Positions 5,999 through 6,088 of a stretch of DNA of 33,113 bases are shown here, piece after piece. The translations under genes and the position numbers were made by a program. Each line of letters opens with the position of its first letter. The first letter of the stretch is position 1. The stretch lies in the IMG/VR virus record IMGVR_UViG_2529292715_000006; one strand, 5' to 3'. The notes beneath the pieces are model-generated. The model was not told the DNA's origin and did no database searches. It saw only the letters and a list, made by a program, of their open reading frames with translations. Origin of the DNA: a virus. Its lineage: Duplodnaviria; Heunggongvirae; Uroviricota; Caudoviricetes.

Positions 5999-6016
5999 AA
6001 CGAAATTAAAACCCTT

Positions 6017-6081
6017 GTACCGTTAAGGTACAAGTGTCTTGGAGGTTCATTTCAATCATGTAACATGTACACCGGAGGTAC
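6017..6081. promoter_or_regulatory. OR-like operator region with divergent PRM/PR (GTACCGTTAAGGTAC at 6017-6031, GTACACCGGAGGTAC at 6067-6081)
   Basis: Two 15-bp dyad sites in the 90-bp cI-cro intergenic region; the second overlaps the cro Shine-Dalgarno; cI has almost no leader and no SD, so it may be leaderless. Confidence 0.5.
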
Positions 6082-6088
6082 ATATTGT

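Follow-up and report, generated by a model that had tools for sequence, protein, structure and literature searches.

The closest described counterparts of the immunity region analyzed here are those of e14, a prophage of E. coli K-12 MG1655, and of phage SfV. An operator region was annotated in 2002, and the SfV GenBank record (U82619.2) marks 26377-26445 as a "putative operator region" and also carries a cI terminator; the leaderless mRNA of the e14 repressor was mapped in 2014. Reviews list the e14 repressor YmfK as SOS-sensitive and CroE as regulating its own operon. The SOS-inducible division inhibitor ymfM of e14 is not LexA-controlled and is thought to be under the CI-like repressor, which has been described, from sequence similarity, as likely to be SOS-responsive. 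We analyzed 33,113 nucleotides of a Caudoviricetes virus (IMG/VR record IMGVR_UViG_2529292715_000006), referred to here as the window, in which positions 5999-6088 are exactly the 90-bp intergenic region between a divergent cI-type repressor gene on the minus strand and a cro gene on the plus strand. This region is very probably the lysis/lysogeny immunity switch of an SfV-like prophage and of the e14/SfV type, with ymfK as cI and ymfT as cro. A first-pass annotation made from the sequence had described the region as an immunity switch; its observation was confirmed and its interpretation supported, and what the region contains is a lambdoid-type switch of the ordinary kind, already known from the e14/SfV group.

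Comparison with the described systems left little distance between them and the window. The window and e14 share 99% nucleotide identity over 876 bp, a segment including the left operator (OL), cI, the right operator (OR) and the start of cro, and they are identical from the cI ATG through the operator designated OR3. The immunity region of SfV is 97.9% identical to that of the window, and those of SfIV, PhiR29/PhiR49, Ayreon, 2H10 and the cdtI and Stx2c phages are 95.7-99% identical. The putative operator region of SfV corresponds to window 6015-6083 (69 bp), with differences in OR1 (TGTATA TCGGA GGTACA in SfV), the OR3 spacer (GATAG) and the rightward promoter PR (TTGAAG/TAATAT). Of the first 25 kb of the window, about 66% has a match in SfV, at 96%. 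The window represents a larger SfV-like prophage, whereas e14 is a 15-kb remnant.

The two flanking genes were characterized from their products. The C-terminal domain of the repressor is a Peptidase_S24 domain (Pfam, E=1.5e-26) that can be aligned with the corresponding domains of lambda cI, UmuD and LexA. It contains the lambda-like motifs VQAG (98-101), GDSM and TFKRL (TFKKL in lambda), in which Ala100-Gly101, Ser138 and Lys176 are the autocleavage residues. The N-terminal DNA-binding domain comprises about 72-75 residues and weakly matches the phage repressor structure 5d50 (E=6e-4). Cro gave weak matches to YdaS_toxin (E=1.5e-5) and HTH_3 (E=0.0065), both under the Pfam curated cut-offs, and to the PDB "Cro" structures 8co2/8c7k. 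On these similarities the flanking genes are a CI-type repressor and a Cro. Of the 5426 complete E. coli genomes in RefSeq, 1324 have genes named ymfK and ymfT and with them the e14/SfV immunity type.

The first-pass annotation had placed two 15-bp dyads (6017-6031 and 6067-6081) between divergent cI and cro, the second overlapping the GGAGG ribosome-binding site of cro at 6074-6078, and both sequence reading and motif scans bear this out. Positions 6017-6031 read GTACC GTTAA GGTAC, a perfect dyad, which in the window extends (as 6016-6032 and beyond) to 8-bp arms (CTTGTACC/GGTACAAG). Positions 6067-6081 read GTACA CCGGA GGTAC, where the left half has a single mismatch, and the GGAGG combines the last 3 nt of the spacer with the GG of the right half-site; it is separated from the cro ATG by 10 nt, which is rather long. 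The motif scan that had been proposed, for GTAYC-N5-GGTAC across the window, returned 7 strand-matches with at most one mismatch (1.56 expected), all confined to the OR or OL regions. GTAC-N7-GTAC occurs in the 33,113 bases solely at 6017 and 6067 (0.32 expected), and the Poisson probability of at least four GTAC within 67 bp is 7e-5. The features of the region are collected in the table.

Regulatory features of the immunity region (PRM, maintenance promoter of cI; PR and PL, rightward and leftward promoters; relative positions refer to the PRM start at 5998 and the predicted PR start at ~6073)
Feature	Sequence	Position	Strand	Remarks
OL2-like operator, weaker	TGTTTC GCTTG GGTACA	5241..5257	.	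over PL -10 edge and start; 12.6 bits, chance level alone
PL promoter	TTGACA-16-CATAAT	5257..5284	-	11/12 to consensus; -35 at 5284..5279, -10 at 5262..5257; promoter annotated at the homologous place in Ayreon
OL1-like operator	TGTATC CCAAG GGTACA	5261..5277	.	19.4 bits; between PL -35 and -10
cI terminator		5293..5312	-	hairpin then T-run, between cI stop and PL; from consensus scan; putative rho-independent terminator in SfV and Ayreon annotation
cI-type repressor gene (ymfK/cohE type)		5324..5998	-	open reading frame of 224 aa; ATG at 5998; name ymfK from RefSeq
PRM transcription start	A of cI ATG	5998	-	from e14 ymfK start; window equals e14 from ATG to 6035
PRM -10	TTTAAT	6005..6010	-	-12..-7 from A of ATG; read from sequence
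PRM -35-like	TTGTAC	6028..6033	-	3/6; 17-bp spacer; end of OR3 plus first base of OR2; invariant in relatives; putative assignment
OR3-like operator	TGTACC GTTAA GGTACA	6016..6032	.	perfect dyad; 22.8 bits, top score in window; PRM -18..-34; PR -57..-41
OR2-like operator, degenerate	AGTGTC TTGGA GGTTCA	6033..6049	.	8/12 match; over PR -35; PRM -35..-51, center -43; PR -40..-24
PR -35	TTGGAG	6039..6044	+	by eye; TTG invariant in relatives; TTGAAG in e14 and SfV
PR -10	TAACAT	6061..6066	+	16-bp spacer, by eye; TAATAT in e14, SfV and nearly all relatives; predicted start near 6073
OR1-like operator	TGTACA CCGGA GGTACA	6066..6082	.	19.7 bits; PR -7..+9; PRM -68..-84; includes cro Shine-Dalgarno DNA
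cro Shine-Dalgarno	GGAGG	6074..6078	+	inside OR1; present in every relative with GTAC operators
cro gene (ymfT/croE type)		6089..6289	+	open reading frame of 66 aa; ATG at 6089; ymfT, YdaS family in RefSeq

Conservation of the dyads in phages sharing the repressor had been set beforehand as the test of the annotation. Relatives were found by searching with the N-terminal domain of the repressor, and the 100 bp upstream of each repressor ATG were compared in 22 non-redundant relatives whose N-terminal domains are 55-100% identical to that of the window. SfV, SfIV, Ayreon, 2H10 and the cdtI and Stx2c phages have identical or near-identical domains (99-100% over the N-terminal 101 aa), prophages in about 16 further genera, Enterobacterales and others, reach 69-90%, and the more distant relatives are a Hafnia phage (74%), Pseudomonas phages (59%) and a Vibrio phage (55%). 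The dyads are kept in 22/22 relatives, with sites at positions 21, 38 and 71 from the cI ATG and a one-base shift in four. The half-sites are nearly invariant, and the spacer of OR3 varies freely (18 different pentamers). The OR1 spacer is held to nnGGA in all relatives because it forms part of the cro GGAGG, and that of OR2 to TTGnn because the PR -35 lies there. That OR1 overlaps the GGAGG is a matter of coding coincidence; the overlap limits the spacer and does not itself count as evidence of translational control.

The same comparison corrected the number of OR sites. Both dyads of the first-pass annotation are real, and its count of two becomes three, since the relatives reveal a further site abutting OR3, which reads AGTACC TTGnn GGTTCA (10/12) in most Enterobacterales relatives and AGAACC TTGAC GGTACA in a Pseudomonas phage; the corresponding 6033-6049 of the window is a probable weak OR2. 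When a weight matrix made only from the sites of the relatives was run on the window, its top four scores fell at 6016 (22.8 bits), 6066 (19.7), 5261 (19.4) and 5241 (12.6). Shuffling 200 times gave best scores with a mean of 11.5, none of them above 19.7. A further match inside cI (5617-5633, TTTCCC CACAG GGTACA, 10/12) scored 11.1 bits, at chance level beside that shuffle mean, and was taken as noise.

The half-site pattern had also been said to recur downstream of cI at OL-like sites, and two sites (5261-5277 and 5241-5257) were indeed found there over PL. The pair overlaps a leftward promoter downstream of cI, which is the arrangement expected of OL and PL. In most Enterobacterales relatives a strong site lies ~46 bp past the cI stop, and many have a weaker TGTTTC/TGTTGC-N5-GGTACA 20 bp beyond it. 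No third OL site at the 20-bp periodicity was seen on either side of 5241-5277, by eye or with the weight matrix.

The third element of the switch is the transcript of cI, which the first-pass annotation had called apparently leaderless, lacking a Shine-Dalgarno sequence and resembling that of lambda PRM. Differential RNA sequencing and RNA ligase-mediated reverse transcription PCR in K-12 placed the ymfK start, of class I, at the A of the ATG, which leaves a 0-nt leader (Romero et al. 2014, PMC4681348); Table S3 of that paper gives the transcription start site RVS_(I)-1202156 and the gene start 1202156. Since no base differs between the window and e14 from the ATG through OR3, this start is transferred to the window; a leaderless cI maintenance mRNA is thus supported, by experiment on the identical e14 sequence rather than on the window itself. 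No Shine-Dalgarno sequence precedes the cI ATG in the window or in any relative, and the TAAT of the PRM -10 keeps a fixed distance from the ATG in 17 equally spaced relatives, the 6 nt between them being variable. Leaderless prophage-repressor mRNA is a common pattern: of the five E. coli mRNAs that the study found to be leaderless or nearly so, three encode prophage regulators (racR, dicA and ymfK; PMC4681348). The genes racR (Rac) and dicA (Qin) of K-12 are leaderless or near-leaderless like ymfK and differ from it in repressor family and operators. Another register of the PRM -10, TAATTT, would keep an A at -11; it was rejected, as its position 7 falls on the G of the ATG and conflicts with the mapped start.

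Taken as a whole, the locus appears to contain the parts of a lambdoid CI/Cro switch, namely divergent genes, a repressor with helix-turn-helix and S24 domains, OR dyads over PR and PRM, and an OL cluster over PL. In the switch that we propose, repressor dimers would bind the 17-bp TGTACC-N5-GGTACA through the N-terminal helix-turn-helix domain. Occupation of OR1, at the PR start, and OR2, over the PR -35, would turn off cro and the rightward early operon, and the two OL sites would cover PL. The repressor gene would be transcribed from PRM as a leaderless maintenance mRNA whose first base is the A of the cI start codon (5998), and Cro or excess repressor at OR3, inside the PRM core, would turn cI off. 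More speculatively, repressor at OR2 (-43) may also activate PRM, as the lambda analogy suggests, and SOS induction may lead to RecA-stimulated self-cleavage at Ala100-Gly101 by Ser138/Lys176. The operator assignments, which are computational, are very well supported, and from them we infer binding by the repressor and Cro.

The likeness to lambda extends to divergent cI (helix-turn-helix plus S24) and cro, three 17-bp OR dyads, a PL cluster, a leaderless PRM mRNA for cI and the Ala-Gly/Ser/Lys motifs. The operator sequence, however, is unrelated to that of lambda; Cro is placed in the YdaS family, not with the lambda Cro fold; OL consists of two sites; and, unlike in lambda, rex genes are absent and cI together with OL lies within only ~750 bp of OR. 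Also unlike lambda, SfV and SfIV have no reported N gene. Lambda OR2 is centered at -42 from the PRM start. The OR2-like site of the window, at -43, is within 1 bp of this position, a lambda-like placement that is suggestive of PRM activation from OR2.

Several points weigh against the proposed switch. No base-resolution footprint, electrophoretic mobility shift, chromatin immunoprecipitation or SELEX data for YmfK/YmfT were found in the searchable literature, outside which the original SfV and e14 analysis papers lie; nor did following Pseudomonas phage D3 and YA3 and the SPC32H repressor in the literature yield anything on these operators. The PR start near 6073 is a prediction only, and PR, being below the threshold of the consensus scan, was not listed by it. 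The PRM -10 has no A at -11 and its -35 matches the consensus at 3/6; the non-A at -11 is consistent with an intrinsically weak PRM. An extended -10 (TGn) is absent in the right register from both PR and PRM. Further objections concern OR2 and the operator geometry, and are taken up with the alternatives to which they lead.

The OR2-like site is degenerate in the window (8/12), so that its case rests on positional conservation; it falls outside the top 15 weight-matrix scores of the window and below chance level, and its conservation partly coincides with the PR -35. It could therefore be argued that OR has two operators only (6016-6032 and 6066-6082) and that 6033-6049 is the PR -35 with its spacer and binds nothing. 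The TTG in the middle of the site is indeed that of the -35, and abutting 17-bp sites with a 17-bp center distance would be unusual. The flanking hexamers, however, lie outside the -35 hexamer and yet are conserved like the half-sites of OR1 and OR3, with the correct N5 spacing and orientation, and the forms taken by this site in the Enterobacterales and Pseudomonas relatives come closer to the consensus. We therefore regard a two-operator OR as unlikely and retain OR2 as a probable weak site.

The arrangement of the three operators is not that of lambda either. The OR3-OR2 and OR2-OR1 centers are 17 bp (opposite helix faces) and 33 bp apart, in comparison with 23 and 24 bp in lambda, and OR1 lies over the PR start, where that of lambda is in the PR spacer. 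In addition, the best-consensus operator lies over PRM, unlike in lambda; if affinity simply follows consensus, this site would confer strong self-repression. The switch might accordingly be wired differently in spite of having the same parts, with a perfect OR3 in the PRM core, an abutting weak site at -43 and a PR site three helical turns away. A repressor tetramer or a face-alternating pair could then occupy the 34-bp OR3-OR2 composite, self-repression could dominate, or OR3 could be mainly a Cro site. We hold such a wiring to be doubtful and mention it tentatively; the OR geometry itself is kept from Enterobacterales to Pseudomonas and Vibrio phages.

The start-site table of the K-12 study (PMC4681348) lists no forward start near ymfT in the lysogen, which is expected if PR is repressed there. 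The three intergenic differences from e14 (6036 A>G, 6042 A>G and 6064 T>C, window base last) all fall on regulatory elements, changing the left half of OR2 from AGTATC to AGTGTC, the PR -35 from TTGAAG to TTGGAG and the PR -10 from TAATAT to TAACAT. These changes could weaken PR or OR2 in the window prophage.

That cI is here expressed mainly from a leadered transcript starting upstream, at a PRE-like or other leftward promoter, so that the e14 start at the ATG would not apply, seems improbable to us. The imperfect -10 and weak -35 of PRM would fit such a transcript, as would a CII-like gene after cro and the e14 reverse-strand starts ~0.9 kb upstream. However, the window is identical to e14 over precisely the segment that has a class I start at the ATG, the relatives share both the missing Shine-Dalgarno sequence and the fixed distance from -10 to ATG, and an establishment transcript is compatible with a leaderless maintenance transcript. 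The leaderless maintenance mRNA is accordingly retained.

It is still less probable, indeed very much so, that the perfect dyad at 6013-6034 is no protein site and forms instead, on the cI strand, an RNA hairpin or intrinsic terminator that attenuates leftward read-through. The consensus scan does render it terminator-like (8-bp stem, 5-nt loop, then GGTTTTAATT), and the RNA fold reaches -15.1 kcal/mol (z = -2.86); perfect DNA dyads, though, always fold as RNA. Among the relatives only the operator half-sites persist, and neither the extra stem pairs (CTT/AAG) nor the T-rich tail is retained; the mapped e14 transcript begins downstream of the hairpin, at the ATG. An intrinsic terminator has a GC-rich stem and a conserved U-run; the tail GGTTTTAATT is weak, and tail and stem extension are both unconserved, and the terminator reading was rejected. 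The perfect operator has 8-bp arms in the window, e14 and SfV alike, and an RNA hairpin on the minus strand would precede GGUUUUAAUU. Finally, that the dyads are functionless chance palindromes is hardly credible and was refuted by conservation: GTAC is itself a 4-bp palindrome around which short dyads arise easily, but both of the two GTAC-N7-GTAC occurrences (0.32 expected) fall within the 90 bp between the genes, three sites score as high as the best of the 200 shuffles or higher, and site positions are conserved across four bacterial orders.

GTAC dyads are missing from two relatives whose repressors are only 37-38% identical. Relatives with GTAC operators share the N-terminal block IDRE(P)TQxSR; in an aligned relative of 38% identity with other palindromes, this putative recognition-helix block has NMSAAQFANL in place of IDREPTQTSRF. 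The probable recognition helix of the repressor spans about residues 32-41 (EPTQTSRFMG). Homologues of the window Cro adjoin the Pseudomonas and Vibrio operators, and repressor, Cro and operators therefore travel as one module, which is common to phages of Enterobacterales, Hafnia, Pseudomonas and Vibrio. Membership of the e14/SfV immunity group, with near-identical repressor, Cro and operators, would imply homoimmunity, and the map can be used to predict it among SfV-like, cdt-converting and Stx2c-converting prophages.

With the operator region and the leaderless mRNA already described, and the module found in roughly one in four complete E. coli genomes, the locus carries little weight as a discovery. 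To the earlier reading the analysis adds a third site in OR, a definition of PL/OL and conservation across genera. For annotation, it offers the operator consensus TGTACC-N5-GGTACA and a map of a three-site OR and a two-site OL. What remains new is solely the unusual operator geometry (a perfect site in PRM, a weak abutting site at -43 and 33 bp to the PR site), and the e14 copy makes the switch easily testable in E. coli K-12.

A few observations were made around the switch. The ymfL-type gene after cro (6321-6884) matches Phage_CP76 in Pfam (the CII family of phage 186; E=4e-13). The SfIV genome paper describes SfV, SfII and SfIV as without a cII-like factor, and a putative CII-type establishment function at the ymfL-type gene may have been overlooked. 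On the reverse strand, the K-12 start-site table has entries at 1203046, which is 889 bp upstream of the ymfK start, and at 1203132, which is 975 bp upstream of it (old coordinates). If the window is collinear with e14, they correspond to about 6887 and 6973 on the minus strand, near the ymfL end and the ymfM start, and are candidate leftward promoters, PRE-like or antisense.

Among the relatives, the deposited cI coding sequence of Hafnia phage yong2 (MZ516527.1) starts at 1618 (185 aa), and the conserved ATG, from which the complete N-terminal DNA-binding domain is encoded, is at 1501 (224 aa; locus 1501-1618), so the deposited version probably lacks its first 39 codons. Beyond OL of the same phage, ~2380-2470 resembles a tRNA gene by eye (...GGTGGCTGGACTTGAACCAGCGACG...), and nothing similar stands at the corresponding place in the window. 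A metagenome-assembled genome labelled Geobacteraceae and a Martelella alba contig carry an immunity region of Enterobacterales type, and the N-terminal domains of their repressors share 88% and 69% identity with that of the window; these deltaproteobacterial and alphaproteobacterial cases probably reflect mis-binning or contamination.

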